A stretch of 64,000 bases of DNA from Candidatus Aenigmatarchaeota archaeon (GCA_026397375.1 JAPLUZ010000022.1:24234-88233), one strand, 5' to 3'. Numbered from the stretch's first letter, positions 37,021 through 55,491 are shown. Numbers and translations: made by a program. Notes: generated by a model not told the origin, from the letters alone.

Positions 37021-37063
37021 CGCTCATCTTATTTTTAAGGCTTTGCTTTCCAGTTCTTCATAA

Positions 37064-38005: not shown

Positions 38006-38118
38006 AAGTAGGTTGACTTATCATTAAATTATTTAAAACGACCAAGGACGCGGGTTCTAAAGTGAGATTATAGGCTGTATAATAAGGGTATAAAAACTTT
38101 TCTCTGTTTAACTTTCAT

Positions 38119-38895: not shown

Positions 38896-39869
38896 ATGAA
38901 AACACATGGTCAGGAAAGAATGTTTTTGTAACGGGTAGCAGCGGCTTTCTAGGAGCTTGGGTTACAGAAAAATTGATAGGACAGGGTGCAAATGTTGTCA
39001 CTCTTTTGCGCGACGATGTGGCAAGATCGTACTTCCATTTAGAAGGACTAGACAAAAAAGTTACCACAGTAAGAGGTTCGCTGGAAGATTACTTACTGGT
39101 CGAAAGAATACTAAATGAGTATGAGATTGAGACTTGTTTTCATCTTGCCGCACAGACAATAGTTGGCACTGCTAATAGATCGCCTCTTTCGACATTTGAG
39201 TCAAACATAAGAGGTACTTGGAATGTTCTTGAGGCGGCAAGAAACAGCGAGGTTATGAAGGCAATGGTTGTGGCGTCTACGGATAAGGTTTATGGGGAAT
39301 CGACCAGTCTTCCATACAGGGAGACGGATCGGCTGGGTGCAAAACACCCCTACGACGTTTCTAAAGCGTGTGTGGATATGTTGTGCTCTTCCTATTTTCA
39401 TACCTATGGATTGTCGGTGGCAATAACCAGGTGCGGAAATATATTTGGCGGGGGGGACCTGAATTTTAACAGAATAGTTCCCGGTACAATACGTTCGGCA
39501 TTAATTAAAGAAAGACCCGTCATAAGGAGCGACGGCAAACTAGTTCGTGACTATGTATATGTGGAAGATATTGCCGATGCAAATATCCTTCTAGCTGATA
39601 CACTTCTTAGGGGAAGAGAAAAAGGCGAAGCATTTAATTTTAGTTTGGAACAGCCGCAAAGCGTAATTGAAGTAACCCAGAAGATATTAAGCGCTATGAA
39701 TTCTGATCTACAACCAATAATTTTGAATCAAGATTTGAAAGAAATCAATAAACAATATCTTTCTTCCGAAAAAGCAAGGGCGAGATTAGGCTGGAAACCA
39801 AAGTGGACTTTTGATTCGGGTATAAGAAAAACAATAGATTGGTATAAGAAATTTATCAATTCCTATTAG
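38877..39869 (+). CDS. rfbG: CDP-glucose 4,6-dehydratase
   Basis: WSGKNVFVTGSSGFLGAW..., YDVSK, GNIFGGGD; typical RfbG/DdhB pattern and position. Confidence 0.8.
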   Translation: METVAMNENTWSGKNVFVTGSSGFLGAWVTEKLIGQGANVVTLLRDDVARSYFHLEGLDKKVTTVRGSLEDYLLVERILNEYEIETCFHLAAQTIVGTANRSPLSTFESNIRGTWNVLEAARNSEVMKAMVVASTDKVYGESTSLPYRETDRLGAKHPYDVSKACVDMLCSSYFHTYGLSVAITRCGNIFGGGDLNFNRIVPGTIRSALIKERPVIRSDGKLVRDYVYVEDIADANILLADTLLRGREKGEAFNFSLEQPQSVIEVTQKILSAMNSDLQPIILNQDLKEINKQYLSSEKARARLGWKPKWTFDSGIRKTIDWYKKFINSY

Positions 39870-39875
39870 AATAGG

Positions 39876-41213
39876 ATGATTTTTATGTCGGATAAATTAG
39901 AAAGCCTTAAGGCTGAAATACTAAAAAAAGTAAGGGAGTATCAGAATACTCGTGAAGCTGAATCAAAAGGATTTGACAGAAAAAATCCAAAGGTTCCTGT
40001 ATCAGGAAAAGTTTTTGACGAAGAAGACGTAGCGACTCTTATAGATTCTTCTCTTGATTTTTGGTTAACCGCAGGTAAGTTTACTGATATGTTTGAAAGC
40101 GAACTTGCCAAACTCTTCGGTTTAAGGTACGCTTTAATGACCAATTCTGGGTCATCTGCCAATTTAATTGCGCTTTCGGCGCTGACAAGTAAATTTCTTG
40201 GTGATTCAAAATTAAATGACGGTGACGAGGTTATAACAGCAGCTGCGTCTTTTCCCACTACGGTGAATCCCATATTTCAATGCGGATTAGCACCGGTATT
40301 TTTAGACGTCGAACTTGATACGTACAATATAGATACTTCGAAAATAGAGGAGACGATAACAAATAAAACAAAAGCAATAATGATTGCGCATACGCTTGGA
40401 AATCCTTTTGATGTTAAAAAGATTACAAAAATATGTCAGGACTATAATCTATTTTTGATAGAGGACTGCTGCGACGCTCTTGGATCGAAATTTAATGGAA
40501 AAATGGTCGGAACATTTGGAGACGTTTCTACAATGAGTTTCTATCCGGCCCATCATATTACAACTGGCGAGGGCGGCGCGGTTTTTACCGACAACCCCAT
40601 GATCAAACGTGCAGCAGAATCAATCAGAGACTGGGGGCGTGATTGCTGGTGTAAAACCGGGTGCGACGGTACGTGCGGCAAAAGATTTGACTGGAAGCTG
40701 GGAAATTTGCCACACGGCTACGATCATAAGTATATCTACGCAAACGTAGGCTATAACCTCAAGGCTACAGATATGCAGGCCGCAATCGGGTGCTCACAAC
40801 TGAAGAAATTATCAAATTTTATAAAAATACGTAAAGATAATTTTGAATTTTACCTGAAATTCTTCAGAAAATACAATAATTTTTTCATTTTACCTAAAAT
40901 CTATGATGGTGCTGATATGAGTCCGTTTGGATATTTGATTAACATACATTCCGATGCACCATTCAAACGCCAAGAGTTGGTTAGATATTTAGAATCAAAG
41001 GGCATTGCCACAAGAATGCTCTTCGGCGGAAATTTAACAAAACAACCCGCATACATGGACAAAAAATACAGGGTTATTGGCGGTCTTGAAAATACAGACA
41101 GTCTCATGAACAATGCATTCTGGATTGGTGTTTATCCCGGCATAAATAACGAAATGCGAGAATATGTTGTGGAAATTTTTGCTGATTTTTTGGAAAATTT
41201 AGATAGTAATTAA
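39876..41213 (+). CDS. rfbH: CDP-6-deoxy-D-xylo-4-hexulose 3-dehydrase (E1, PMP-dependent, RfbH/DdhC)
   Basis: Long near-colinear match to Salmonella RfbH; SFYPAHHIT with His replacing the PLP-Lys, and four Cys of the 2Fe-2S motif WGRDCWCKTGCDGTCGKRF. Confidence 0.85.
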   Translation: MIFMSDKLESLKAEILKKVREYQNTREAESKGFDRKNPKVPVSGKVFDEEDVATLIDSSLDFWLTAGKFTDMFESELAKLFGLRYALMTNSGSSANLIALSALTSKFLGDSKLNDGDEVITAAASFPTTVNPIFQCGLAPVFLDVELDTYNIDTSKIEETITNKTKAIMIAHTLGNPFDVKKITKICQDYNLFLIEDCCDALGSKFNGKMVGTFGDVSTMSFYPAHHITTGEGGAVFTDNPMIKRAAESIRDWGRDCWCKTGCDGTCGKRFDWKLGNLPHGYDHKYIYANVGYNLKATDMQAAIGCSQLKKLSNFIKIRKDNFEFYLKFFRKYNNFFILPKIYDGADMSPFGYLINIHSDAPFKRQELVRYLESKGIATRMLFGGNLTKQPAYMDKKYRVIGGLENTDSLMNNAFWIGVYPGINNEMREYVVEIFADFLENLDSN

Positions 41214-41219
41214 TTTTTA

Positions 41220-41927
41220 TTAGTTATCAAATTTTTTGGTTAGTTTAAACAAAATTATATTTTTTATAAACTCAAGTACGATATAGAACTTTACATTTGA
41301 CTTTCCTTTTTTTCTTTTTGAGTATATCGATTGTACTTCACCTACTTTGAAATTTTTCTTTCTAGCTTTTACCAATAGTTCCGTGTCTATGAAAGAATCC
41401 AGTGCCCTTAATTTCAGTGACTCGTAGCAGCCCCTTTTCATGAGTTTTGGATAGCCGTTGATATCCCTGCTAATACCACCAAAAATTAGCGGACAAACAA
41501 AATAATTATAAGAAGCTGAAACGAATTTTCTGTAAAAATTATACTCCCTTGCCGTTCTTGTAACTTTGCATATATCCAGGTTTTCTTTTATTAATTTTTT
41601 GTAAACACTTAGTAATGCAGTGGCCGGAATTTCGTTATCGCCACCAGTCCAGCCAACAACTTCGCCTTTTGCGTGCTTCAGACCTTGCAGCAGCCCATTG
41701 CCGTACCCTATATTTTTATGTACGGTAACGACTTTTACCCTATCATTTCTTAATTTATCAAGTATTTCCCCTGTTTTGTCGCGAGAACCGTTATTAATGG
41801 CTATTATTTCATAGTTTATTTTATGTTTTTTCAGAAGATTGGAATGAAGTAGAATAACATCTTTTACATTATCTTCTTCGTTGTAGAAAGGTATGACAAC
41901 CGATAAATCATATTTCATATATCTCAT
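41220..41927 (-). CDS. GT2-family polyprenyl-phosphate sugar synthase (DPM1/GtrB-like)
   Basis: LSVVIPFYNEEDNV...; 235 aa. Confidence 0.6.
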   Translation of the reverse strand: MRYMKYDLSVVIPFYNEEDNVKDVILLHSNLLKKHKINYEIIAINNGSRDKTGEILDKLRNDRVKVVTVHKNIGYGNGLLQGLKHAKGEVVGWTGGDNEIPATALLSVYKKLIKENLDICKVTRTAREYNFYRKFVSASYNYFVCPLIFGGISRDINGYPKLMKRGCYESLKLRALDSFIDTELLVKARKKNFKVGEVQSIYSKRKKGKSNVKFYIVLEFIKNIILFKLTKKFDN

Positions 41928-41958
41928 CTTAGATTAGAACACGATCGTATTTAAAATA

Positions 41959-43614
41959 TTAAATATTGATGTCTGTGACATTGTAAACGAAGGTCGAATA
42001 GCCTAGAATAGCGTCTGGCGTTCTTTCTCTTAACCAGGAATAGCAATCCCTTCTAATCATGTTTAACATATCGATGGAAATTGCGTAGATCCCATTAGCA
42101 GGTTGGCAGCTGGCGTAAGAGAAATTACCATAATAATTCCAGAAAGATTTTGGAATTGGCGTGGATATGTACAGACTGGTTAAGTTATGCTGCTTTGCGT
42201 ACTTGCCTACTTCATTTATTCCCTGACCAATGTCTATGTTGGCGTCACTAAGCCACAAATAACCATTTTCAGGCTTTCCTATGAACTGGTTGAAATATGA
42301 CATATTGTAAGGCAGGAATGTCACTGCTTCAAACACGTACCATATGAGAAGTGCAATTATAAATAAATTCAGAATTCTTTTTTGATGTTTTTTTAGGTTC
42401 GCGGTTACTATGCTGCTTAAAATAACAAAAATAAACGGGTAGGCTATCATCAAATGTCTTAGACCTATGTCGAATCCGATAAAGAAAGATAAGAAGATAA
42501 AAGTAGCAATTATTGGAAGTACAATAAACAGCCAGTCTTTTTTCATCTTAATTTTCTTCGAAGCCAAAAATATTGTGAACATAAACAAGAATAAAAGGAT
42601 AGAAATGGGCGTTTTTATCAAGTAAGCAATTATGTAAAAATACCACCAGCCGTGTACCGACGTCTCACCCATTAGGAAGCTTATATGGCCTTCGGTAGAA
42701 TGCCATATGTTATATCCTAGGGCAGCATTCAGATACGCCGGAACAGGAACAGGAACATTCATTAAATTTGTTACTAAAGATTTCATGCCTTCGCTGTGAA
42801 ATGTCTGATTTATAAAATCCGTCGCCTTTTCATTTGAATGAACGACATTTATCATGCTGTCGAACTGGAATCCATAAAAAGCCCATATAACAAGAAAAGC
42901 AATTATGTAATAAATGACAGCCCTTTTAGCGGTTTTTAACGATATTTTTCCGAAATAAAAGAATAACACAAGTGTTATAGGTATTAACAGCAGAGCAGTG
43001 AATTTACTTAGCAGTGCAAGACCCAGGGCAAATCCTGCTATAATTAAAGATGATTTACTTGAATTTTTGAGAAGACACCAAAAGTAATAGACCGCTATAA
43101 ATATAAAAGTGGTTGCCACCAAATCACTGGTGACTATGGAAGAATTACCCAGTATAGTAGGCTCGAAGGAAAATAGAATCAGCGCGATAAGTGCTGCCTT
43201 GTTTCCATATAGTTTTCTTGACCATCTGAAAATAAAGAACCCCAAAAGCACTCCGGTAAGTGCTATGGGAAGCCTTGTTAGGAACAACAGATTATCCAGC
43301 CCATAGGCCTGTGCATTTGCTGACATGTCAAACGGCTTGTGGGACCAAACAGGATTTTTATCGAATATCAAAAAAATACTGTTTATGTAGTACGACAGAA
43401 CAGGATGAGACCTTAAAACGAAAGGACTGCCAGGGCCAAAGTCTTTTGTTTCTATAAGGTATTTTCCAACACCCGGATAAAACTGCTCATCACCGATCAT
43501 GCCGATATTCAGGATTATGTAAACGGATTGAATAAAATATATAAGTAGGAGAAGTGCGGCAAAGATCTCTACTCTATTTTTATAAATAAACTTGTAAATA
43601 TTTTTTGGAATCAT
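41959..43614 (-). CDS. GT-C fold membrane glycosyltransferase (ArnT/PMT-like, GT39/83-type)
   Basis: 551 aa, more than 10 TM, polytopic architecture typical of lipid-linked-sugar-dependent transferases; very AT-rich. Confidence 0.5.
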   Translation of the reverse strand: MIPKNIYKFIYKNRVEIFAALLLLIYFIQSVYIILNIGMIGDEQFYPGVGKYLIETKDFGPGSPFVLRSHPVLSYYINSIFLIFDKNPVWSHKPFDMSANAQAYGLDNLLFLTRLPIALTGVLLGFFIFRWSRKLYGNKAALIALILFSFEPTILGNSSIVTSDLVATTFIFIAVYYFWCLLKNSSKSSLIIAGFALGLALLSKFTALLLIPITLVLFFYFGKISLKTAKRAVIYYIIAFLVIWAFYGFQFDSMINVVHSNEKATDFINQTFHSEGMKSLVTNLMNVPVPVPAYLNAALGYNIWHSTEGHISFLMGETSVHGWWYFYIIAYLIKTPISILLFLFMFTIFLASKKIKMKKDWLFIVLPIIATFIFLSFFIGFDIGLRHLMIAYPFIFVILSSIVTANLKKHQKRILNLFIIALLIWYVFEAVTFLPYNMSYFNQFIGKPENGYLWLSDANIDIGQGINEVGKYAKQHNLTSLYISTPIPKSFWNYYGNFSYASCQPANGIYAISIDMLNMIRRDCYSWLRERTPDAILGYSTFVYNVTDINI

Positions 43615-43626
43615 TTAACTCACGCA

Positions 43627-45183
43627 CTAAATTTTTTTATAGATAAGAATATAACCGTTCTGCTCCGGACTAAACCTATGGTGAACCGGGTCTGGAAATT
43701 CTGACCATTGCTCGCCGGTATTATGAACAGTAAAAATCTCATATTTTGCTGTATTGATGTAAAGATCTAGGTTAGCATTCGGCGATGTTGTGGCATTATC
43801 TATAATAATCCATCTGTAAGATTCGTTAAGTTCGGATAAGTTGTTTCTAGATATTATATTTTCTTGGGATGCATTAAGATACATTACAAAGGCTTGTGGT
43901 GGCACATAATTCGACATCAGAAATATTTTATCCCCCTTAACATAGGTCTGCGAAACGACTTTTATTACGGATTCGCTGGAATATTCATAATGATGGGTTG
44001 CCTCGTACAAATAATCGAAAAAATAATACCTGGGCTGTAAGCTTCTTGATAAAAATCTGTCAGTAACTTCCTGCGTGGCATACGAGCCCAGATCAACATT
44101 TCTAATGAAATTTAATGGAATAATATTGATAAAGTTTGTGAAAACTAAAATAATCAGAATGATAAATCCTAGAAACTTCATTGCATTATTCTTTCTTGCA
44201 AAGAACATTTGAGAAATAACATATGCAATAAGAATAGATGCAAGCGGAAGTAAAACAATAAGTTTTCTTATGGAAATAGGTCCTGTAACACTGATAAGAG
44301 AGGACAGCACCAGGATGGTGATTATTATTGTCAAGAAGAGACGATGCTCGGTACTTAATTTTCTCCAGTTAATTTTGTTCTTTTTTACAAGATACAGACC
44401 AAGCACAACAATAGCAGGCGGCAGGAAGAACACCAGCAGATAGAAAACACCAGATGCAATATTCAGCAGGAGAAACCCCGTGTTGAAAACCGATGAAAGA
44501 GGGCTAAGGGTCTGCCTAGAGTACAGCCACAAGATAATTAGCGGCAGTGAAAATATCCCAATCAAAATGAATGGGCTGAAAATATTTTTGATGTTGTTCC
44601 TTCTTTCAATAATAGAAAATAAAAATAAGCCGGCTATTAGATAAATGCCCACCTCTGCATGCGTGTAAAATAGAATTACAGAAGAAATTATGAATGGCAG
44701 CATGGAATTCTTCCTGTTTTTCATGAATCTGATAAAGAAGAAAATTGTCAACAGGGAAAAGAACATCAGCATGGAATAGTACCGTCCGTGGCGGGCATGA
44801 AGATAAAACAACGTGGAAAATATCACAAGCAGGAAGGCTATTATTCTTGTCTTCCTATCCTTTACGTTTTCTTTCAAAAAGACGAAGTAGAGTACTAGAA
44901 ATAATATGCCAAATACGGCGGATACAAACCTAATGGAAAATTGGTTAAGACCAAAAACCAGTACTGACAAAGAAGTTAGATAAAGGTGTGGAAGCGTGAC
45001 AAGAGAGACCTGAAGATCACCAGGATACCCGATTTTTATTATTTCCTGAGACCTTTCCACGACGTAGGCTTCGTCGGTGGGGCCAATAAACCTGTCGCCT
45101 AAATTATAAAATAAAAGAAGTGCGGCCAGAACTAAACATATAATAAAAAAACATTTCTCATAATTTTTAGATGTGAAATGCAT
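43627..45183 (-). CDS. GT-C fold membrane glycosyltransferase (ArnT/PMT-like), paralog of the preceding gene
   Basis: 518 aa, more than 10 TM. Confidence 0.5.
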   Translation of the reverse strand: MHFTSKNYEKCFFIICLVLAALLLFYNLGDRFIGPTDEAYVVERSQEIIKIGYPGDLQVSLVTLPHLYLTSLSVLVFGLNQFSIRFVSAVFGILFLVLYFVFLKENVKDRKTRIIAFLLVIFSTLFYLHARHGRYYSMLMFFSLLTIFFFIRFMKNRKNSMLPFIISSVILFYTHAEVGIYLIAGLFLFSIIERRNNIKNIFSPFILIGIFSLPLIILWLYSRQTLSPLSSVFNTGFLLLNIASGVFYLLVFFLPPAIVVLGLYLVKKNKINWRKLSTEHRLFLTIIITILVLSSLISVTGPISIRKLIVLLPLASILIAYVISQMFFARKNNAMKFLGFIILIILVFTNFINIIPLNFIRNVDLGSYATQEVTDRFLSRSLQPRYYFFDYLYEATHHYEYSSESVIKVVSQTYVKGDKIFLMSNYVPPQAFVMYLNASQENIISRNNLSELNESYRWIIIDNATTSPNANLDLYINTAKYEIFTVHNTGEQWSEFPDPVHHRFSPEQNGYILIYKKI

Positions 45184-45236: not shown

Positions 45237-46169
45237 TTACATAGCAATGATTTCTTCTAATCCCCTCTTAATAGAGTATTCAGGTTTATAGCCCAAAGAT
45301 TTCGTTATCTTGCTTACATCAGCTTTCTGGAAATCTATGTAATTTTTTACAGTGTTCTTGACGTACTTAGGCTGTATTTTTTTGTTCAAAACACTGTTGA
45401 GCATTTTCACAAGGTCATTAAGGCTGGTAGCTTTTCCTGTTCCAACATTGAAGATCTCGCCTATCATCTTCTTTTTTGTTGCTGCTGCAAGGATATTCGC
45501 CTGACAAATATCTTTGACGTAGATGAAGTCTCTTGTCTGCTCGCCTGTACCATAAATTACAGGCCGCTCGTCTTTTTTCATGGCCCAGAGAAATTGCGTT
45601 ACAAGGTTTGCAAATTTTGTTTTTCCCTCTTCGTGGGGACCGTATACACTCATGTAGCGCAGCCCAACAGTTTCCAGACCGTATTCTATGCCATAGAGAG
45701 CTGCGAGATGCTCGTTCATGAGCTTGGAGGATGCGTAAAAATTAACAGGAACAACTTTCATATCTTCCCTCAGCAGAGCCTTAGTATTTCCATAGATGGA
45801 AGACGTGGACGCATACACAACCCGTTTCACATTATTTATTCTGGCCGCATTGAGAATATGAATAAAACCGTCTATGTTCACAGATAGGGCTTCTTTCAGA
45901 TTTTCCCTAAACATGGGCGAGGACGAGGCGGCAGCTTGGTTAAAAATAACATCAACACCTTTTGTTATTTTTAACAGAAGATCTAGATCGCGTATATCGC
46001 CATCTACCAGTTCTATTTTATCTCTGATCCTTTCAAGGTTTTTTTCAATGCCAAGGAAGAAATTATCAAGAACAACAACTTTGTGACCTTTCTTAATCAG
46101 TTCTTCCACTAGGTTTGAGCCGATAAACCCCGCTCCGCCGGTTACAAGACATTTCATAATTATCAACAC
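45237..46169 (-). CDS. NAD-dependent nucleotide-heptose/hexose epimerase (HldD-like)
   Basis: VTGGAGFIGSNLV, YASSK, and RYMSVYGPHEEGKTKFANLV resembling the HldD FNVYGPREGHKGSMASV segment; adjacent to heptose genes. Confidence 0.4.
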   Translation of the reverse strand: MLIIMKCLVTGGAGFIGSNLVEELIKKGHKVVVLDNFFLGIEKNLERIRDKIELVDGDIRDLDLLLKITKGVDVIFNQAAASSSPMFRENLKEALSVNIDGFIHILNAARINNVKRVVYASTSSIYGNTKALLREDMKVVPVNFYASSKLMNEHLAALYGIEYGLETVGLRYMSVYGPHEEGKTKFANLVTQFLWAMKKDERPVIYGTGEQTRDFIYVKDICQANILAAATKKKMIGEIFNVGTGKATSLNDLVKMLNSVLNKKIQPKYVKNTVKNYIDFQKADVSKITKSLGYKPEYSIKRGLEEIIAM

Positions 46170-46179
46170 ATCAAAAAGT

Positions 46180-47472
46180 TTAAGAAATCAACGGAAATTC
46201 TCTCCTGACTTTTTTAAGTCTTTCAGGCGTCCCTATATCTTTTATGTAAGCATCGGATAAATATCCGTATATTTTTTCCTTGTTAAGCAACTTGAACAAA
46301 ACATCTTTTTCTATATTTGAAATACCGTTTGGTATACGATCTAAAATTTTAGTCCTTAGTACCATTATTCCCACGTTGGCAGTTTTGTGAATATCTTGGC
46401 CACGGCCTATATATTTTGTCACCTCATTTTTTTCATTAATTTTTATAATATCGCTATCTATAGGGTGGTCGGTCTTACGCAGAACAACAGTTGCAATTCC
46501 GCTATGAGAAAAATGAAACCTCAAAAGAGAACCGATATTCATGTTTGTTATTACATCACCATTCAGCACAATAATATTTTCAGCATTAACAAGGTACTGT
46601 GCAGCATTTTTTATTGCGCCGCCTGTGCCCAAAGGCTCTTTTTCCCCTGGATAGTCTATGTGAACGCGGAATTTTCTGCCGTCACCGAAATAGGCCTTTA
46701 TTTTGTCAACGAGATAAGAACCGCAAATAACTATTTCATTTACTCCATATTTCTTCAGGAGATTTATGTGATATTCTAATACAGGTTTGCCGTTAATGGG
46801 GATCATGGGCTTTGGCAGGTCTTTTGTAAGTGGCAGAAGCCTTTCGCCTTTACCGCCGGCAAGAATAATTGCCTTTGTTTTTATCAAATTCCTAATTAGC
46901 GTGGCCGCATTTAACAATGTGTCACATTCGTAATCTGCTTTTATGTCATGTTTTTTGTCTTTCCCTGCGACACCGGTCTTTACAAGTATTGTCCTTGTTC
47001 CGGCGTTTTTACCTGCTAATATATCAACCGTACGATCGCCGACAGTGAAGGATCCAGTAAGGTCTACGTTATATTTTTTAGCGGCTTCCAGTATCATACC
47101 AGGATTTGGCTTTCTGCAACTACATTCTACCCTGTATTTTTTTGCATGCTCTGGAACATCACTGTATTGCTCTGGGTGATGGGGACAGAAATAAAAATCG
47201 TCTATGTGGGCGCCCCTTTTCATCAAATCTTTTTGAACTTTATCGTTTATTTTTTTCACGCCGTCTTCAGATATCAGGCCTCTTGCGACCTGTGGTTGGT
47301 TTGTCACAACGATGACCTTTACGCCACTTTTATTCAACATCTTTATGCCTTCTGCTGCGCCGTCTTCAAGTTCTATTTCTTCTGGCTTTACAACAAGGGA
47401 AGTCTTCTTCGTCACTGTTCCATCCCTGTCAAGAAAGACGGCTCGCATAAAATCACATGGCATCGTAGCCAA
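46180..47472 (-). CDS. Bifunctional D,D-heptose 1,7-bisphosphate phosphatase (GmhB, HAD) / D,D-heptose-1-phosphate nucleotidyltransferase (HddC-like) fusion
   Basis: N-term VFLDRDGTV...CSCRKPNPGM (GmhB signature); C-term KAIILAGGKGERLLPLTKDLPKPMIPINGKPVL nucleotidyltransferase. Confidence 0.75.
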   Translation of the reverse strand: MATMPCDFMRAVFLDRDGTVTKKTSLVVKPEEIELEDGAAEGIKMLNKSGVKVIVVTNQPQVARGLISEDGVKKINDKVQKDLMKRGAHIDDFYFCPHHPEQYSDVPEHAKKYRVECSCRKPNPGMILEAAKKYNVDLTGSFTVGDRTVDILAGKNAGTRTILVKTGVAGKDKKHDIKADYECDTLLNAATLIRNLIKTKAIILAGGKGERLLPLTKDLPKPMIPINGKPVLEYHINLLKKYGVNEIVICGSYLVDKIKAYFGDGRKFRVHIDYPGEKEPLGTGGAIKNAAQYLVNAENIIVLNGDVITNMNIGSLLRFHFSHSGIATVVLRKTDHPIDSDIIKINEKNEVTKYIGRGQDIHKTANVGIMVLRTKILDRIPNGISNIEKDVLFKLLNKEKIYGYLSDAYIKDIGTPERLKKVRREFPLIS

Positions 47473-48037
47473 ACAAGTTCTTTATGACAAGAGCACATAC
47501 CCTGTGGTAAGCAATTATATGGCCTTCCTGTATTATTGATACATTGGAAGCAGGTATGTTTAGAAGAAAATCAGCAATTTCTTTTATTTTGCCTCCAGAT
47601 TCTCCTGTAAAACCAATTGTTGTAGCACCTATTTTCTTTGCTTCTTCCATAGCATTTATTACATTCATGGAATTGCCGCTGGTGCTTATGCCTATTATTA
47701 CGTCACCTTTTTTTGCATTGGCTTGGACAAAGCGTACGAAACACATGTCGTAGTTGAAGTCATTGCTTATTGCTGTCAGGGCCGACATGTTAGAAGGCGT
47801 TAAAGCAGACAGGGCTTTCCTACCTTTATCTATGGACGACAGCTGACCTTCGAACTCGGCAGCAAAGTGATTGGCGTCGGCCGCAGAGCCGCCGTTGCCG
47901 AAGATAAGTAATTTACCGTCATTCTGGTAGCATTTTGTTATAACTTCGGCCACATCTTCTATGGATTTCAAATCTAAGGAATCAACCATTTTTTTGTGCA
48001 TATCTATTTTGTCTTTGAGGTAATTCATTTTTATCAC
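47453..48037 (-). CDS. gmhA: Sedoheptulose-7-phosphate isomerase (phosphoheptose isomerase, SIS domain)
   Basis: LLIFGNGGSAADANHFAAEF SIS motif, 194 aa. Confidence 0.75.
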   Translation of the reverse strand: MIKMNYLKDKIDMHKKMVDSLDLKSIEDVAEVITKCYQNDGKLLIFGNGGSAADANHFAAEFEGQLSSIDKGRKALSALTPSNMSALTAISNDFNYDMCFVRFVQANAKKGDVIIGISTSGNSMNVINAMEEAKKIGATTIGFTGESGGKIKEIADFLLNIPASNVSIIQEGHIIAYHRVCALVIKNLFGYDAM

Positions 48038-49032
48038 CCTACAAAAGAGAAGTTTATACGCTTCGCACCAAAGGGCGCAATGGCATCCATTATTTTTTCC
48101 TGATTTTTTGAAAAGAAAACAGCGCAGCCACCACCACCTGCTCCAAGGAATCGCCCACCAAGGGCACCAGCGTCCATGGCAGCTGAGTATACGTCTTCTA
48201 CACGTGCATTTGATATGGAGGTTGCCAGATTTTTCTTTAGTATCCAGTCCTTGTGCATGAGGCGGCCGAAATCTTCAAACCTTCCCTCCTCAAGGGAGGC
48301 CCTTATTTTCTCCACGTTGCCCCTTCTATCAATTAGAACATCAATAACTTCTGATTTTTTCTCTTTCTGCTCCTTGTGAATATCCTTGCCTTTTGTTTCA
48401 CGCTTGATATAAACAAGAAGCAATTTGTCTTCAAGGGATTTCAGATCTGCCTGGGACAAATTTAATCTCTTTGTCTCGACACGCCGGTTGGCGAATTTCA
48501 TATAATTTAATCCACCAATGGCAGATGCCCATTGGTCCTGGTAACCGCCGGCAACACCACAGACATTTCTTTCCAGATGGTAAGCCAACCGAGCCACCTG
48601 TGTTGGCGGCATTATTATATCATTGAATTTGTTGAAAGCCTTTATTACAGCTATGGCATGGGCTGCACTACCGCCAAGACCGCTTTCCAGCGGAGCGTCG
48701 GTCCATGTTTTGACTTCTATGCCTGTGTTGCCGTAGTGTTTAATTATAACTTTGGTCAGATTCAGTTCTCTGACATCAAAATTCATATCTTCCAGCGCAT
48801 CGAATGCAATTTCATCGCCGGTTTCCATGGATTTTATAACTATTTTGCCGTCGGTACGCTCATCTATTGAACAATAGGAGAACATGTTAACCGCGGCATT
48901 TACAGTGTTACCCCAGCCTATCAGGTTCATGTAATAATCCGTATCGCCGCAGCTGCCAAAGGTTATCCTCACAGGAGATTTTTCCGCTATCATAAAATCC
49001 ACTCTACTTGTCGTAACCAAGGTCCCTTGCAT
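48034..49032 (-). CDS. GHMP-family D-glycero-alpha-D-manno-heptose 7-phosphate kinase (HddA-like)
   Basis: GHMP motif ESGLGGSAAHAIAV; 332 aa; operonic with gmhA and gmhB-hddC. Confidence 0.6.
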   Translation of the reverse strand: MQGTLVTTSRVDFMIAEKSPVRITFGSCGDTDYYMNLIGWGNTVNAAVNMFSYCSIDERTDGKIVIKSMETGDEIAFDALEDMNFDVRELNLTKVIIKHYGNTGIEVKTWTDAPLESGLGGSAAHAIAVIKAFNKFNDIIMPPTQVARLAYHLERNVCGVAGGYQDQWASAIGGLNYMKFANRRVETKRLNLSQADLKSLEDKLLLVYIKRETKGKDIHKEQKEKKSEVIDVLIDRRGNVEKIRASLEEGRFEDFGRLMHKDWILKKNLATSISNARVEDVYSAAMDAGALGGRFLGAGGGGCAVFFSKNQEKIMDAIAPFGAKRINFSFVG

Positions 49033-49247
49033 TCCTCAGGGTTTCTATAGTCTCTAGCATGGGGGCTGGCAGGCCTGTAAGTTCTTTGTCTGAAATAGCC
49101 GCTTCATCCTTATAAACAACGCCCGTAACTTGGTCTATAGAATAATTATGACCACCGCTTTCGTCTATTGGAATAAGATAAAACACATCTTTCGTATGCA
49201 ACACCTTCTAATTGATGCTGGAATTGGTTTTAAATAGGTTAAATGTT

Positions 49248-49267
49248 CATACTTTTTCATACTTTTT
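49248..49267 (+). repeat. 10-bp tandem repeat catacttttt x2 immediately upstream of the RHH-nucleotidyltransferase gene (candidate operator)
   Basis: Read directly; ends 11 bp before ATG 49279. Confidence 0.7.
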
Positions 49268-49278
49268 CGACAGAAGGT

Positions 49279-50115
49279 ATGAATATGATAAAAAGAGTAA
49301 CAATAACTGTAAAGCAGGACCTGTTAAGAAAACTGGACAGGATGATAGATAGGCAACATGTAAAAAACAGGTCCCATGCAGTGGAGCAATTAATAATAAG
49401 GGGCTTATCGAAGACGGATTTGGATACGGCTATTATAATGGCGGGCGGCGATGGGGCAAGATTAAGGCCAATAACCTATGAAATACCCAAGCCGCTTATA
49501 CCTGTTAAGGGAAGGCCGGTTCTTGAACACCAATTAAACATGCTAAAAAACTATGACATAAGAAATGTCACTCTGGCTGTTGGCGAAAACTATGAAAAAA
49601 TAAAAGAGTATTTTGGAAATGGCAACAAGTTCGGAATTAACATAGAGTATCTGGTTGAGCAGAGGTCTATGGGAAATGTAGGTGCCCTGAGTCTGATAAA
49701 AAATAAAATAAAAAACACATTTATCGTTCTGAATGTGGATGCATTAATAAATCCTGACATTTCTGAGATGTACACCTTCCATAAAAAAGAAGGCAGGCTG
49801 GCTACGGTTCTGCTGGCGCAGGTTGACGATCCAAGTGACTACGGCGTGGCAAAAATGCGCGGCAGTCAGATAATAGATTTTGAAGACAGGCCAAGCCGCA
49901 CAGAATCAAACCTGGTTGATGCCAGCTTCTACATATTCGAGCCAGAGGTTCTAAAATTTATGAAAAAAGGAAAAATGATGATGAAGGACCTGCTTAAAAT
50001 TCTGGTGCAGGAAAACCAACTGTCTGGTTTCTTATATGATGGCTTCCTCTTCGACGTAGCAACGCATGAAGGCTATGAAAGGGCTATTAAAAACTGGAAA
50101 CCAGCCTTTGCTTGA
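49279..50115 (+). CDS. Ribbon-helix-helix (NikR/CopG-like) DNA-binding domain fused to a sugar-phosphate nucleotidyltransferase domain
   Basis: N-term KRVTITVKQDLLRKLDRMIDRQHVKNRSHAVEQLIIRGL (compare NikR RVTITLDDDLLETLDSL...NRSEAIRDIL); C-term IMAGGDGARLRPITYEIPKPLIPVKGRPVLEH NTP-transferase. Confidence 0.6.
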   Translation: MNMIKRVTITVKQDLLRKLDRMIDRQHVKNRSHAVEQLIIRGLSKTDLDTAIIMAGGDGARLRPITYEIPKPLIPVKGRPVLEHQLNMLKNYDIRNVTLAVGENYEKIKEYFGNGNKFGINIEYLVEQRSMGNVGALSLIKNKIKNTFIVLNVDALINPDISEMYTFHKKEGRLATVLLAQVDDPSDYGVAKMRGSQIIDFEDRPSRTESNLVDASFYIFEPEVLKFMKKGKMMMKDLLKILVQENQLSGFLYDGFLFDVATHEGYERAIKNWKPAFA

Positions 50116-50145: not shown

Positions 50146-51993
50146 ATGCGGTTGCTAAACTGCATTCTAATCCTATTTTTCCTTGCTTACCCGTCACACG
50201 CTATAATCATAAATGAAGTAATGTACAATCCTATCGGTTCTGATAGCGGAAACGAATGGCTAGAAATCTACAATAATGATACAGAAACATACAATCTAAC
50301 AGGATGGAAAATAAATATTGATGACACAGACCATACGCTTAATGTCCCGCCAAGCAACGGCGGGATAGGATCAATGATAGTTGACCCTGGTAATTATGTC
50401 ATAATAGCGCAGGATGCAATAAAATTTTTGAGTAATTATCCAAGCTACAATGGAACGGCCATCGACAGCTCTTGGGATAATCTAGTAAATTCTGTAAACA
50501 AAACCATATGGATAAGAAATTCCACAAATGTATTTCATAACATAACAACCTTTGCTAATTTAACAGAAGGAAAAACGTTTTGCCTGATTAACAGCATCTT
50601 TATGGGATGCGACCCAACACCAGGATATGTCAATGGTCTTGTACAAAATACTACAGGTCAGACTGACGAACAAAACAATATAACCGGTTCGTGTGATTTA
50701 GGGCTATGGATAGAAACAAGTTCGGATGTTTATAACGTTTCCACAATTTATTTTGACATCAAAGTAAATGATACAAACTGCACTGAAAAAGATACCACGA
50801 TAAATTATTATATTCAAGATTTGTTCGGTAACATTGTAAAAGCGCCTGTCGATTCGGTCATCAATTTAGCATGTACGGCGTCTTTGCAGCACCAGTGGAC
50901 GCCCGATGACATGCAGGGTTCAGAAGCGTACTATATAATTGGGAATATTGTGAACGCAGACTGTAATGACACAAACATGAATAACAATGTCGCCTCAAGA
51001 CTAATAGTTGTCAAAGGAAACAACATTCAGACAGGTTCTTCTATAGATATAATTTCTGTTGATATGGGTTCTGACAATTCTGTAAAATATGGAGAAGCGG
51101 CTAACATAAAAATAAGGGCATATCGGGGCGATACATCAAAATATGCAATAGATGTTTGGATAGAGAATTCAGGCAAAAAACTCAGCAGTATAAGCACAAT
51201 GCATGCAAAGAACAAGTTCACCGAATACGAATTTCAGGTTCCTGTCCAATTGAAATCAAATTGCGACAACGCTTTCAATGATGGCGAATACGACGTTATC
51301 GCTGACGGCTTGGACATAACAAAAACAGCAAAGATAAATATTTCAGGCATCTCAACAACAAACTGCAAGACAATAACTATAAGCACAAGCGGTGGCGGAA
51401 GCAACTCGTATAGCTACACACCAAGCGAATTGTTTTCCCACGAAATAACAAAATATGAAAGTACCGCGGAAACAGGCGAAGAAATAGAAACTATTGTAAA
51501 CATAGTCAATAATTTCACAACACAGAAAAACTTCACGGTATATTCCTATGTTTACAAAGGCAACAATCCTGTTTCTTCCGGCCTTAATGAGAAGAATGAA
51601 TGGAAGGGCGGTTATACGGCAAACTCAATATCGTTTCTGCTTAATCCAAAGGAATCAAAGAACATTGTTCTAAAGAATAAGATAGATGAAGACACAGAGC
51701 AAGGCATGTATAATTTTAGAGTAAGAATAAAAGTTGACGGCAAGGACAATGATATAACAAAGGATATTTACGTCATAAAATCAAACACGACAAATATCAT
51801 TTCTTCTGCAGGATCGGGAATAGATTCTGGCGCAAAATCAAACAATATAATCGCAACCAACAGAACAATAGAAAAAGTTTCTAAAATGACGGGATTGATT
51901 ACAGACAAACCCAAGATAAACTCGAACTTGAATATATTTCAGCCGCCTTTGATTGTTCTGTTTAATTTTATAATGGCACTTTTCTGGGCATAA
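50146..51993 (+). CDS. Secreted/anchored lamin-tail-domain (LTD) surface protein, Asn/Thr-rich with many N-X-S/T sequons (candidate S-layer or surface glycoprotein)
   Basis: Signal peptide, LTD signature IINEVMYNP...NEWLEIYNNDTETYNLTGW, more than 25 N-X-S/T sequons, C-terminal hydrophobic anchor. Confidence 0.6.
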   Translation: MRLLNCILILFFLAYPSHAIIINEVMYNPIGSDSGNEWLEIYNNDTETYNLTGWKINIDDTDHTLNVPPSNGGIGSMIVDPGNYVIIAQDAIKFLSNYPSYNGTAIDSSWDNLVNSVNKTIWIRNSTNVFHNITTFANLTEGKTFCLINSIFMGCDPTPGYVNGLVQNTTGQTDEQNNITGSCDLGLWIETSSDVYNVSTIYFDIKVNDTNCTEKDTTINYYIQDLFGNIVKAPVDSVINLACTASLQHQWTPDDMQGSEAYYIIGNIVNADCNDTNMNNNVASRLIVVKGNNIQTGSSIDIISVDMGSDNSVKYGEAANIKIRAYRGDTSKYAIDVWIENSGKKLSSISTMHAKNKFTEYEFQVPVQLKSNCDNAFNDGEYDVIADGLDITKTAKINISGISTTNCKTITISTSGGGSNSYSYTPSELFSHEITKYESTAETGEEIETIVNIVNNFTTQKNFTVYSYVYKGNNPVSSGLNEKNEWKGGYTANSISFLLNPKESKNIVLKNKIDEDTEQGMYNFRVRIKVDGKDNDITKDIYVIKSNTTNIISSAGSGIDSGAKSNNIIATNRTIEKVSKMTGLITDKPKINSNLNIFQPPLIVLFNFIMALFWA

Positions 51994-52025: not shown

Positions 52026-52715
52026 ATGTTTCTAAAAAATTACCCTGCAATGAAGGTAGAAAATTGCCTTGTCATAACAGACCTGCATATAGGAATAACA
52101 AAGGATATTTACGACAGGGGCATAACCATACCTAACCAGGCAGAAAAATTGGCTGTTAAAATAAACAAGTTAAAGGCCCTGACTCATACAAGGAGATTAG
52201 TTCTTCTGGGAGATATCAAGCATAAGGTTTCAGGATTCTCAGTTCTGGAGAAATACGAGCTGGAAAGGTTCTTCTCAAAACTGAAGTTCAAAGATATCAT
52301 AATTGTAAAGGGCAACCATGACGGCAACATAGAAAAAATGCTGCCAAAGGGCAAAATAAGCGTAAGAAAGACCTTCGGTCTGGGCGAATATTTTTTCACG
52401 CACGGCCACAGAAAAATAAAGACGACAAAGAAAATAATAGTCATAGGACACAACCAGCCTCATATAAAATTCCGCGATGAGATGAGAGCTGTTTATGTGG
52501 AGCCTGTGTGGGTCAGGGGCAGGTTAAAGGGAAAGCTTAAGGGTAAGAAACTCATAATTGTTCCGGCCTTCAATGATCTCTGCGGCGCGACAATTGTGAA
52601 TAAGGACAAGCTCCTGGGACCGATAGCAAAGCAATTAAACAAGAGGGCTACACACATATTTCTGTTGGATGGAACGGATTTAGGCAGCCTGATGGATTTG
52701 AAAATAAAAGAGTGA
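52026..52715 (+). CDS. Binuclear metallophosphoesterase (MPE-like nuclease partner of Lhr)
   Basis: DLHIG, GDIKHK, GNHDG motifs; 229 aa; immediately upstream of lhr. Confidence 0.6.
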   Translation: MFLKNYPAMKVENCLVITDLHIGITKDIYDRGITIPNQAEKLAVKINKLKALTHTRRLVLLGDIKHKVSGFSVLEKYELERFFSKLKFKDIIIVKGNHDGNIEKMLPKGKISVRKTFGLGEYFFTHGHRKIKTTKKIIVIGHNQPHIKFRDEMRAVYVEPVWVRGRLKGKLKGKKLIIVPAFNDLCGATIVNKDKLLGPIAKQLNKRATHIFLLDGTDLGSLMDLKIKE

Positions 52716-52719
52716 TACC

Positions 52720-55491
52720 ATGACATTTACACTGTTTTCAGAAAAGATGCAAAAATTGATAAGAGAAAGGGGATTTCTGGAGCCCACGCTGGCCCAGCAG
52801 ATGGGTATGCCCGAGATTTTGAAGGGCACCAATGTGCTTATCATAGCTCCAACGGGCATAGGCAAGACCGAGGCGGCTATGCTGCCATTAATAGACATGG
52901 TTGCCAAGCAGGAGAGCAAACCTATATCCGTGCTCTATATAACACCGCTGCGCTCTCTGAACCGAGACCTGCTGGACAGGCTTTTTTGGTGGGCTGACAA
53001 GATGGGAATAGAAATAGGTGTCAGGCATGGCGACACTTCTGCAGCGGAGCGAACAGCACAGCGGGAAGCGCCGCCTCACATCCTGATAACAACGCCGGAG
53101 ACTTTACAGGCTGTGCTTACGGGAAAACTAATACGCGAACATTTTAGAAATGTAAAATATGTTGTTGTAGACGAGATACACGAGCTTATAGAAAGCAAAA
53201 GAGGAACCCAGCTTTCCGTTGTTTTAGAACGCCTAGAAGAATTGTCAAAAGATTTTCAGAGAATAGGATTGTCAGCTACAGTAGGTTCACCGCAGCTTGT
53301 CGCAGATTTCCTTGGCAAAAATGTAAAAATAATTCATGCTGATGCTACAAAGAAATATAACATAAGAGTAGAAGCGCCGGTGCCTGGACTGAAGGATAAG
53401 CAGATGGCTGACGATCTGGTTATCGGGGAAAATACGACAGCCCGGCTTCGCCGACTGTATGAACTGATAAAGGAACACACTTCTGTGCTGGCATTCACCA
53501 ATACAAGGGAGACCGCCGAAGTTCTATCGTCTCGTTTGCGAAGCTTGGACAGGGAATTGAAACAAGCAGTGCACCACGGTTCGCTGTCAAAAGAAAGAAG
53601 AATAAGAAATGAGCAGTCTTTCAAGAAGCAGGAGCTGAAGTCACTAATTGCAACAAGTTCCCTGGAGCTTGGCATAGATATCGGATCGATAGACCTGGTT
53701 ATACAATACATGTCGCCAAGGCAAGTCTCTAAACTGATACAGCGTGTCGGAAGGTCAGGTCATGGCATTGGAAGGACAAGCAAGGGCATAATAATTTCAG
53801 GTGACGAAGACCTGTTCGAGTCGGCTGTAATAGCGAAGCACGCCATGGAGAAAAGGCTTGAAGAATTAACAATGCACGAAAAGGCATACGACGTTCTTGC
53901 AAACCAGATAGTTGGGAATGTGATGGAAAATTATTCCATGCCCAGCGATAAAATATATGAAATAATAAAGAGGGCTTATCCTTACAGGGATTTGAAGAAA
54001 AAAGAATTCCTGGAAGTTCTGCAATTTTTGGAAACACTTCATTTAGTATGGCTAGACAAAACAAAGGACGGATACGAAGTAAAAAGAAGGAAGAAGGCGT
54101 TCACCTATTATTTTGAGAACCTGTCAACAATACCGGACAAGAGGCAGTACAAGATTGTATCTGTTATAGAAAATGAGCCGATAGGCAGTCTGGACGAAGA
54201 ATTTGTCGCGGAACACGGCCAGGCAGGCAACAAGTTCGTATGCGCCGGGCGTGCGTGGAAAATAATCCAGGTCTACCCCGACAAGGTGATGGTAGAACCA
54301 ATAGAAGACATAGAGTCGGCTATACCGGCGTGGGAAGGCGAGCTCATACCAGTGCCCTTTGCCGTTGCCCAGGACGTCGGAAGACTCAGGAAAATGATTA
54401 TTTCCAACGAAGAAAAGGCAAAAGAATTCCCCATGGATTCCACTTCATTCAAAGAAATGAAGAAAACCATAGAGAAGCACGCAGAAAAACACCAGATACC
54501 GGATGACAAAACCATGCTTATAGAGAATTACAAGGACTTTGTAATAATCCATTCCTGCTGCGGATCGCTTGTGAATGGTACATTGGGGAAATACATTTCA
54601 GCTATCCTCACAGCAGAGACTGGCGTGGCTGTGAACATAAAGAGCGATCCATACAGGATAATGCTGCAGACAGTAGCGAAGTCACAGGACGTCAAAAGAA
54701 TAATCGAAGAAGCAGCTAACATGGAAAATGTGCTTAAAGCGTCCATGGAAAGATCGTCGCTGTTCAAGTGGCGCTTCCTTCAGGTCGCAAGAAGGTTCGG
54801 AATAATATCCCGGAGTGTGAAATACGACAAATTAAACGTGAACAAGATAGTCACAGCATACATGAATTCGCCTGTCTATGAGGCGACGATGAATGAAGTC
54901 TTCATGGATAAAATGGACGTGGAAAATACGGAAAACATAATAAAGAAAATAAAGGACGGATCAATAAAAATGCACATCCAGGAAGGACTGAGTTATCTGG
55001 GCGAGCTGGGACTGGTGCAGCAATTTTCAGAGGTAATGAAACCGAGGCTGCCGCAAAAAGAGATTTATCTTGCATTCAAAAAGAGGCTGCTCACCACAAG
55101 GGTGAGACTTCTGTGCGTGAACTGCGGCGAGTATAATCTTGTTATGACTGTAAGAAACGTGGATCAGGAGCCGGACTGCCCGCACTGTGGATCTCGTCTT
55201 ATAGCCGTTCTAAGAAGAGGTCAAATAAATGCGCAGGGTATTGTAAGAAAGAAAATAAAGAAGAAAGAACTTACAAAGGAAGAACAGGAAGAATTCCAGT
55301 CTGTCAGACGGTCAGCAGACCTTGTCATAGTTTACGGAAGAAAGGCTGTTGAATGCCTGGCAGGTCATGGCGTCGGGCCGCAGACGGCCGCGCGAATCCT
55401 GTCGATGCTGCAGCCAAATAAGGAACTTTTCTATAAAAGCATACTAGAGGCGGAGAAGCAGTTTGCCCGCACGAAGATATACTGGAAATAG
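52720..55491 (+). CDS. lhr: Lhr-type (Lhr-core) superfamily-2 DNA helicase with C-terminal Zn-finger
   Basis: 923 aa; Walker A APTGIGKT, DEIHE box, SAT, QRVGRSGH motif VI, C-terminal CxxC...CPHC. Confidence 0.75.
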   Translation: MTFTLFSEKMQKLIRERGFLEPTLAQQMGMPEILKGTNVLIIAPTGIGKTEAAMLPLIDMVAKQESKPISVLYITPLRSLNRDLLDRLFWWADKMGIEIGVRHGDTSAAERTAQREAPPHILITTPETLQAVLTGKLIREHFRNVKYVVVDEIHELIESKRGTQLSVVLERLEELSKDFQRIGLSATVGSPQLVADFLGKNVKIIHADATKKYNIRVEAPVPGLKDKQMADDLVIGENTTARLRRLYELIKEHTSVLAFTNTRETAEVLSSRLRSLDRELKQAVHHGSLSKERRIRNEQSFKKQELKSLIATSSLELGIDIGSIDLVIQYMSPRQVSKLIQRVGRSGHGIGRTSKGIIISGDEDLFESAVIAKHAMEKRLEELTMHEKAYDVLANQIVGNVMENYSMPSDKIYEIIKRAYPYRDLKKKEFLEVLQFLETLHLVWLDKTKDGYEVKRRKKAFTYYFENLSTIPDKRQYKIVSVIENEPIGSLDEEFVAEHGQAGNKFVCAGRAWKIIQVYPDKVMVEPIEDIESAIPAWEGELIPVPFAVAQDVGRLRKMIISNEEKAKEFPMDSTSFKEMKKTIEKHAEKHQIPDDKTMLIENYKDFVIIHSCCGSLVNGTLGKYISAILTAETGVAVNIKSDPYRIMLQTVAKSQDVKRIIEEAANMENVLKASMERSSLFKWRFLQVARRFGIISRSVKYDKLNVNKIVTAYMNSPVYEATMNEVFMDKMDVENTENIIKKIKDGSIKMHIQEGLSYLGELGLVQQFSEVMKPRLPQKEIYLAFKKRLLTTRVRLLCVNCGEYNLVMTVRNVDQEPDCPHCGSRLIAVLRRGQINAQGIVRKKIKKKELTKEEQEEFQSVRRSADLVIVYGRKAVECLAGHGVGPQTAARILSMLQPNKELFYKSILEAEKQFARTKIYWK

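Follow-up and report, generated by a model that had tools for sequence, protein, structure and literature searches.

A probable heptose-nucleotide operon with a phosphatase-nucleotidyltransferase fusion in a DPANN archaeon

Does a DPANN archaeon make an activated heptose, and if so which one? The question is raised by a minus-strand operon at positions 45237-49032 of a 64,000-nucleotide stretch (the window) from Candidatus Aenigmatarchaeota archaeon (GCA_026397375.1, JAPLUZ010000022.1:24234-88233). The genomes of DPANN archaea are very small, and for most metabolites these organisms are believed to rely on hosts; the alpha-route to heptose nucleotides has, to our knowledge, so far been described in bacteria only. 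An initial annotation, made from the sequence alone, read here four genes of the bacterial route to S-layer-glycan and LPS heptose: a GmhA isomerase, an HddA-like kinase, a single protein joining a GmhB phosphatase to an HddC-like nucleotidyltransferase, and an HldD-like epimerase. All the open reading frames are present, in one minus-strand operon:

48034-49032, minus: GHMP heptose-7-phosphate kinase gene, 332 aa; alternative start at 48993 (Met14)
47453-48037, minus: GmhA-type SIS isomerase gene (step 1), 194 aa; SIS_2
46180-47472, minus: HAD::nucleotidyltransferase fusion gene, 430 aa from TTG or 422 aa from ATG 47448
46882-47448, minus: N-terminal domain of the same protein, a GmhB-type HAD-IIIA phosphatase (step 3), residues 9-197
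46180-46881, minus: C-terminal domain of the same protein, a sugar-1-phosphate nucleotidyltransferase (step 4) and probably a guanylyltransferase, residues 198-430
45237-46169, minus: extended short-chain dehydrogenase/reductase (SDR) gene, NAD(P)-dependent nucleotide-sugar epimerase, 310 aa (306 aa if it starts, as is probable, at 46157)

Elsewhere the window carries plainly archaeal genes (Cdc6/Orc1, family-B DNA polymerase, Cdc48, Lhr, STT3/AglB); tRNA and Rfam scans of the window gave no matches. From kinase to isomerase, fusion and SDR the spacings are -4, 4 and 22 nt. Between the SDR gene and the next co-directional gene come 53 nt with a T-run and a TATA-like element; the operon is therefore most safely defined as its four-gene core. 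The fusion likely starts at ATG 47448 (422 aa), which is favoured by the NCBI gene model and by homologue alignments. Its protein shows 100% identity to P0001, encoded in a Candidatus Aenigmarchaeota metagenome-assembled genome.

We consider it probable, with good though not full confidence, that the operon converts sedoheptulose-7-phosphate into an NDP-heptose that is epimerised by the SDR and passed to a glycosylation island. In step 1, GmhA would convert sedoheptulose-7-phosphate to the 7-phosphate of D-glycero-D-manno-heptose, and in step 2 the GHMP kinase would phosphorylate C1, giving the alpha-1,7-bisphosphate. The GmhB domain at the N-terminus of the fusion would then take off the 7-phosphate (step 3), and the rigidly attached C-terminal transferase domain would condense heptose-1-phosphate with an NTP, most likely GTP (step 4). 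In step 5 the adjacent SDR would epimerise the NDP-heptose via transient oxidation and reduction, either at C6, in an HldD-like manner, or at C4. Finally, the product would feed the surrounding glycosylation island of about 35 kb (step 6).

Heptose kinase, isomerase and the fused phosphatase

All four proteins have Pfam matches far beyond chance: GHMP_N/C for the kinase, SIS_2 for the isomerase, Hydrolase_like plus NTP_transferase for the fusion and Epimerase for the SDR. The best NCBIfam models are HddA for the kinase, gmhA for the SIS protein, GmhB for the phosphatase domain and heptose_epim for the SDR; for kinase, isomerase and phosphatase these are the families that were to be expected.

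The kinase scores 170.3 bits with HddA (NF049969, cut-off 600), and the next model, mevalonate kinase, reaches 95.6. Its four best relatives in the PDB are all heptose-7-phosphate kinases (3k85, 4n3o and WcbL 4usk/4usm, E about 1e-41 to 1.8e-37), while the next family, again mevalonate kinase, follows at about 5e-15. By these comparisons the kinase groups cleanly with the HddA/WcbL-type heptose kinases and not with other GHMP kinases, which bears out its annotation as HddA-like rather than mannose- or glucose-specific. According to a review (PMC10680097, citing Kneidinger 2001 and Huddleston and Raushel 2019), the HddA/WcbL/Cj1425 family of GHMP kinases makes alpha-anomers. An alpha-anomer is therefore expected here, because the kinase is of GHMP type and not of the ribokinase type found in HldE; family membership implies that the product would be the alpha-1,7-bisphosphate.

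For the SIS protein the best NCBIfam model is gmhA (TIGR00441, 165.4 bits, cut-off 209.45), and all PDB matches with E from 1e-41 to 1e-26 are phosphoheptose isomerases, followed by DiaA. Aligned to GmhA of B. pseudomallei (2xbl), the protein shares with it the stretches GNGGSAADAxHxAxEF and IQEGHxxxxHxxC: ADANHFAAEF and IQEGHIIAYH stand opposite ADAQHIAGEF and IQEGHLVLGH, with the active-site His/Glu and Gln/His positions kept. The roles of these residues we take to be those given by Harmer 2010 and Taylor 2008. A gmhA gene is thus present on closer alignment also.

The phosphatase domain reaches 153.3 bits with the GmhB model NF006506 (cut-off 178) and 125.9 with TIGR00213 (cut-off 149.6), both below threshold, and passes TIGR01656 (135, cut-off 84) and TIGR01662 (115, cut-off 45). 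Its best solved relative is E. coli GmhB (3l8e/2gmw, E 2.5e-28). A histidinol-phosphatase is ruled out by gene context and by the PDB ranking, where HisB-N reaches only 3e-9. The motifs of the fusion are located at residue 15 (DRDGT), 96-122 (zinc loop CPH...CSCRKP) and 206 (GGKGERL); all 120 closest homologues have both DRDGT and the zinc-loop pattern CxH...CxC.

In an AlphaFold2 model of the fusion (predicted TM-score 0.85) the pLDDT is above 90 through the junction, there is no low-confidence linker, and the helix 186-197 passes directly into the strand 199-204. Given this confidence at the junction, the model indicates that the two domains are probably held in a fixed, rigid orientation to each other, an arrangement that might also allow some channelling between them.

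The GmhB::nucleotidyltransferase fusion, with the motifs quoted in the initial annotation, is accordingly real, and it is conserved in relatives: of the top 120 homologue clusters (90% identity), 116 have the phosphatase before the transferase, with Aenigmarchaeota, Woesearchaeota and Nanoarchaeia among the named sources. It had been described as an unusual arrangement, a view that does not hold. A scan of GTDB species genomes found about 40 bacterial loci with the reversed order, usually followed by kinase and GmhA, in Bacteroidales, Flavobacteriales, Clostridia (including Holdemanella biformis DSM 3989), Treponema, Verrucomicrobiota and Roseateles. At the level of 50% identity, 123 of 147 representatives begin with the transferase and 9 with the phosphatase. 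The fusion is thus not rare, and the reverse order, in bacteria, is far more diverse. About 63 of the 123 reverse-order representatives (P0361-P0507) have a length of some 630 aa, with a domain resembling PRK/uridine kinase (PF00485) added as the third at the C-terminus. Examples are found in L014 (9968-11899) and L078 (9680-11890), in cassettes that already have a GHMP kinase (L numbers denote loci of relatives). Adjacent but unfused GmhB and transferase genes, in that order, occur in L008 and L042 (candidate phyla radiation (CPR) bacteria) and L089 (Aenigmarchaeota), plausibly the precursor state of the fusion. In the literature searched we found no publication describing either order, and a paper on GmhB evolution is silent on transferase fusions.

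The strongest new evidence for a heptose substrate is the pentose-phosphate context of the cassette in relatives. A relative with 50% identity (L001) has the same order of kinase, isomerase, fusion and SDR and the same flanking LTD (lamin-tail-domain), metallophosphatase and Lhr genes, and the cassette is conserved in L006 as well. Other steps are fused elsewhere: kinase::GmhA in L006 (530 aa) and L089 (524 aa), nucleotidyltransferase::kinase in L046 and GmhA::GmhB (SIS::HAD) in L073. In the metagenomic locus L005 (70-5972) a triple fusion of GmhB, nucleotidyltransferase and the N-terminal half of transketolase lies beside an RpiB::Rpe fusion, transketolase-C and transaldolase. An Aenigmarchaeota metagenome-assembled genome (L087) has, in a single run, SIS, nucleotidyltransferase, kinase, fusion, transketolase-N, RpiB, Rpe, transketolase-C, transaldolase and an orthologous SDR. 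TIM, RpiB and Rpe lie in the heptose cluster of L089 (3361-8927), and L003 has a split transketolase. Since relatives embed the cassette among, or fuse it with, transketolase, transaldolase, RpiB and Rpe, the precursor is taken to be sedoheptulose-7-phosphate. In these relatives the cluster by itself covers the whole way from pentose phosphates to activated heptose.

Two insertions in such clusters may be mentioned. In L087 (3488-13020) a toxin-antitoxin-like pair (RHH_8/UPF0175 and DUF3368) sits in the middle of the cluster. In L086, where the SDR is missing from this locus, a 304-aa protein without a Pfam match (4220-5134, plus) and then a ROK-family protein lie between GmhA and the fusion.

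Some observations weigh against the proposed pathway. All the NCBIfam equivalog scores of the operon proteins are below the curated cut-offs, so the assignments hold at the level of families and the proteins are divergent members rather than close orthologues. Within the 64-kb window no enzyme forming sedoheptulose-7-phosphate was found. Further, in the literature searched no heptose is reported for DPANN glycans; the one hit was an irrelevant KEGG term in a single paper.

Epimerase adjoining the cassette

The SDR most likely represents a distinct epimerase family acting on NDP-heptose, at C6 like HldD or at C4. It matches Pfam Epimerase at 1e-54, and its best NCBIfam model is heptose_epim (TIGR02197, 182.2 bits, cut-off 274.6); NF008360 gives 104 (cut-off 452) and TviC, NF011728, 175 (cut-off 760). 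Its segment YGPHEEGKTKFANLV aligns without gaps to YGPREFYKEKTASMV of H. pylori HldD and YGPREGHKGSMASV of E. coli HldD. In a MAFFT alignment of PDB-verified sequences Lys183 falls on HldD Lys178 and Glu180 on Glu175, and both positions are invariant in 120 of 120 SDR homologues. Lys178 we take to be the second base of HldD, following Morrison and Tanner 2007 and Kowatz 2010; with T122, Y145, K149 and K183 the HldD-type triad and second base are then present. The AASSS stretch (ACSST/AVSDT in HldD) is likewise HldD-like.

A 4,6-dehydratase was also considered for this SDR and is ruled out: ASTSSIYG has no Asp or Glu after the Thr, and dehydratase models score lower. Without the dehydratase motif, a 6-deoxyheptose route is unlikely.

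The HldD-like reading of the initial annotation stands for the Lys178 match and the top-scoring model, but the nearest characterised relatives by phmmer, family hidden Markov model (HMM), identity and Foldseek are 4-epimerases. The best PDB matches are WbgU, WbpP and 10ke (E 4e-50), with HldD of H. pylori at 3e-37 and of E. coli at 1e-23; the identity is 37-38% to UDP-N-acetylhexosamine (UDP-HexNAc) 4-epimerases and 28-35% to HldDs. An HMM of the SDR family scores 232 with 6dnt and 223 with WbgU, and 114-183 with HldDs (183 for H. pylori, 125 for E. coli). With Foldseek, the AlphaFold2 model of the SDR has a TM-score of 0.91-0.93 to 4-epimerases and 0.87 to HldD. The group-diagnostic alignment columns are split: five follow HldD, four the epimerases and five neither.

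It is therefore possible, though we doubt it, that the SDR is an ordinary UDP-hexose or UDP-HexNAc 4-epimerase of the WbpP/WbgU/6dnt type serving the glycan island, and that the heptose product is used unmodified. Such an enzyme would also fit loci L090 and L091, where the SDR family is found apart from any heptose cassette. This tells against a role of the SDR in the pathway, as do L003, L086 and L088, in which it is absent or an SDR of another type takes its place. On the other side, the invariant Lys occupies a position where WbgU and the M. ruminantium epimerase 6dnt have Asn and the B. pertussis enzyme 10ke has Asp. Further, Ser stands in 120 of 120 homologues at HldD position 169, where all six references, HldDs and 4-epimerases alike, have a sugar-contacting Asn. 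The C-terminal NYIxFQxAD resembles RYQAFTQAD of HldD and not SGDVRHSQAD of WbgU, and the TviC score lies far below its cut-off. An orthologous SDR (399-431 bits) is embedded in the heptose and pentose-phosphate clusters of five relatives: L001, L005, L006, L087 and L089. In addition, 29 contigs, paired by size, are common to the 120 best matches of the SDR and the 120 best of the fusion. The family comprises at least 120 clusters, 59-73% identical, and is restricted to DPANN among the named matches.

An epimerase of NDP-heptose, which we prefer, would be of interest beyond this genome. A 2023 review by Raushel (PMC10680097) states that an enzyme epimerising GDP-heptoses at C6 is still to be identified and that the source of L-glycero-D-ido-heptose in C. 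jejuni HS:3/HS:4 lacks an explanation. The SDR family is for this reason worth testing. As a tentative proposal, it may supply the C6 epimerase that is lacking for alpha-linked (GDP) heptoses; the gene offers a concrete, clonable candidate for this activity. The resemblance to HldD (an extended SDR with a Ser/Thr-Tyr-Lys triad, Lys178 and Glu175 as PxE..K, AASSS and Y..F.QAD) is accompanied by clear differences: the low identity, 182 bits where 275 are required, Ser in place of Asn169 and an overall closeness to 4-epimerases. The substrates should also differ: HldD acts on ADP-beta-heptose, whereas an alpha-linked, probably GDP-linked, heptose is expected here. A route with a GHMP kinase does not make ADP-beta-heptose, so the true HldD substrate is not to be expected.

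A different SDR subfamily is found directly upstream of the bacterial reverse-order fusions in L015, L020, L022, L027, L028, L041 and L062. It has the motif FPNVVGER and no equivalent of Lys178, and reaches only 98 bits with heptose_epim; its best models, at about 160 bits, are dTDP-glucose dehydratase and GalE. This is probably another uncharacterised enzyme that modifies heptose nucleotides.

Nucleotide and sugar of the transferase domain

The transferase domain matches Pfam NTP_transferase at 3e-33. Residues 277-286 of the fusion, EKEPLGTGGA, are an exact match to the guanine motif EXEPLGTGGA of HddC, and the Glu is kept in 97 of 117 homologues. According to PMC6981941, it is the first Glu of the motif, Glu80, that binds guanine in Yersinia HddC, through hydrogen bonds to N1 and N2. 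GTP is thus the likely nucleotide, and the domain is likely a guanylyltransferase.

To this extent the annotation of an HddC-like transferase and a GDP-heptose product is supported. Other features speak against it. The domain scores 116-118 bits with the HddC model (NF049965, cut-off 300), but 145-147 with MurU and 165-168 with the top model man1P_GTase_Rv, a mycobacterial mannose-1-phosphate guanylyltransferase, which brings it close to clustering with a mannose-specific family rather than with HddC. The cut-off itself is narrow, as the standalone transferases of bacterial cassettes with kinase and SIS genes fail it too (154-176 bits). In the PDB, plant and Leishmania GDP-mannose pyrophosphorylases (GMPP), MurU and Yersinia HddC are all matched with E from 1e-30 to 1e-24. 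Also, the domain has TDHPIDSDII where canonical HddC and GMPP carry the sugar-binding xxYG(V/L)V, and the motif (T/N)DHPxDSD is shared by 106 of 120 close homologues and 86 of 123 reverse-order fusions. Judged by these motifs and scores, the domain is a distinct clade or subfamily and not a canonical HddC. In view of the higher man1P_GTase and MurU scores and of TDHPIDSDII, we infer both its substrates, the nucleotide from the guanine motif and heptose-1-phosphate from gene context rather than sequence.

Another nucleotide (UTP, CTP or ATP), with UDP-, CDP- or ADP-alpha-heptose as product instead of GDP-heptose, we regard as rather unlikely. The MurU model, that of a uridylyltransferase, outscores HddC; by eye the DHPxDSD region is nearer to MurU, and the signature GGKGERL is of the MurU/ST0452 type. 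Promiscuity for NTPs is documented for beta-heptose transferases (PMC11573728), and MurU keeps the Glu of the motif without using it for UTP (PMC6981941). However, the best model is that of a guanylyltransferase and the motif with the guanine-binding Glu is present, while the L4-loop residue is Cys, together with Glu, in place of the UTP-binding Asn52 of MurU or the Val/Gln of UDP-glucose pyrophosphorylases.

That the cassette, with its SIS, kinase and HAD proteins acting on hexose phosphates, makes a hexose nucleotide such as GDP-mannose would agree with the best model of the transferase and with the acceptance of alpha-mannose-1-phosphate by HddC in assays (PMC6981941), but is very improbable: only GmhA is found among solved structures at 1e-41 for the SIS protein (DiaA next) and only heptose kinases at about 1e-41 to 1e-37 for the kinase, the HAD domain, with its zinc loop, belongs to the GmhB type, and relatives fuse or interleave the cassette with the enzymes making sedoheptulose-7-phosphate.

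With the bacterial HddA/HddC route the proposed heptose pathway shares its four chemical steps, the GmhA, GHMP kinase and GmhB families and an RmlA-like fold with EXEPLGTGGA. It differs in having steps 3 and 4 on one polypeptide, in its DPANN host, in a transferase from a separate clade (HddC 116 bits where 300 are required, DHPxDSD in place of YG(V/L)V) and in the pentose-phosphate genes embedded in the clusters of relatives. The bacterial reverse-order fusions, for which we found no characterisation in the literature, share both domains, the transferase subfamily with DHPxDSD, the neighbouring GHMP kinase and SIS genes and often an SDR. Unlike the fusion of the window they have the opposite order (123 of 147 versus 9), in about half the cases a PRK-family domain, and an SDR of the FPNVVGER type.

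Heptose had been described as rarely documented in archaea. For the nucleotides this needs qualification: multi-domain NDP-beta-heptose synthetases are found across kingdoms, including archaea (Tang et al. 2024, as summarised in PMC11573728), and in that summary the beta, HldE-type route is the only one for which archaeal synthesis is documented. These enzymes likewise fuse steps of heptose-nucleotide synthesis, but they use a ribokinase-type kinase and a transferase of the cytidylyltransferase fold, make the beta-anomer and join steps 2 and 4 or 1, 2 and 4. In the window the fold families are others, the alpha-anomer is expected and steps 3 and 4 are fused.

If the proposed pathway is right, many DPANN archaea keep a compact route from pentose phosphates to activated heptose, sometimes in two polypeptides, which suggests that heptose-containing surface glycans matter in their biology, possibly for attachment to the host. 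Known chemistry is not overturned; a known pathway would be extended to a new group of hosts and a new protein architecture. Phosphatase-transferase fusions, whichever domain comes first, are very widespread but uncharacterised. If, in addition, the SDR is a C6 epimerase, these genome-reduced archaea would hold a self-contained module leading from the pentose phosphate pathway to L,D-heptose for surface glycans.

Surroundings in the window

The neighbouring genes on both sides of the operon are:

49033-49284: divergent intergenic region shared with the gene below; TATA-like TTTATAA and TTTAAATA elements (direct reading)
49285-50115, plus: RHH(CopG)::nucleotidyltransferase gene, divergent from the heptose operon; Pfam RHH_1 and NTP_transferase
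50146-51993, plus: LTD protein, 615 aa, with a signal- or anchor-like N-terminus and Asn/Thr/Ser-rich repeats
52026-52715, plus: metallophosphatase
52720-55491, plus: Lhr helicase
43627-45183 and 41959-43614, minus: two GT-C/PMT_2-like membrane glycosyltransferases (Pfam, NCBIfam), co-directional and downstream
41220-41927, minus: GT2 of 235 aa resembling polyprenyl-phosphate sugar synthases (Pfam, NCBIfam), co-directional and downstream

The intergenic region presumably holds promoters for both directions. The divergent RHH::nucleotidyltransferase keeps the transferase motifs GGDGARL and PKP, and orthologues stand in the same divergent position in L006 (4878-5702, minus; 55% identity), L086 (1706-2506, minus), L087 (2570-3352, minus) and L089 (2428-3273, minus). 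In DPANN archaea its family, with proteins of about 275 aa, comprises at least 120 clusters. From its domains it could be a sugar-nucleotide-sensing regulator, a second transferase or a moonlighting enzyme; as a regulator it would possibly control the heptose module, should the SDR be a C6 epimerase.

The operon lies at the end of the glycosylation island, which contains STT3/AglB, a flippase, several GT2, GT4, GT-C, methyltransferases and several SDRs. The downstream GT-C and GT2 proteins (41220-45183) are candidate users of the heptose product. In view of the 53-nt gap, their membership of the same operon is conjectural. They are not conserved beside the cassette in relatives, where at most weak GT2 similarity is seen; the idea of a dolichyl-phosphate (Dol-P) heptose used by GT-C enzymes thus stays a speculation for this genome.

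Adjoining the heptose genes is a CDP-sugar module (35248-41213). It has a glucose-1-phosphate cytidylyltransferase (TIGR02623, 338, cut-off 300) and an RfbH/E1 3-dehydrase (680, cut-off 423), both above threshold, a CDP-glucose 4,6-dehydratase-like SDR (230, cut-off 278) and a thiamine diphosphate (ThDP)-dependent acetolactate-synthase-like enzyme (444, cut-off 538), both below, as well as another SDR. By its gene content the module resembles those for synthesis of 3,6-dideoxyhexoses or of branched-chain (yersiniose/YerE-like) sugars.

For the LTD protein, on the other side of the operon, a role as a glycosylated surface protein is possible. L001 has the trio of LTD, metallophosphatase and Lhr genes beside its cassette too, and in L090 the SDR is adjoined by an LTD protein.

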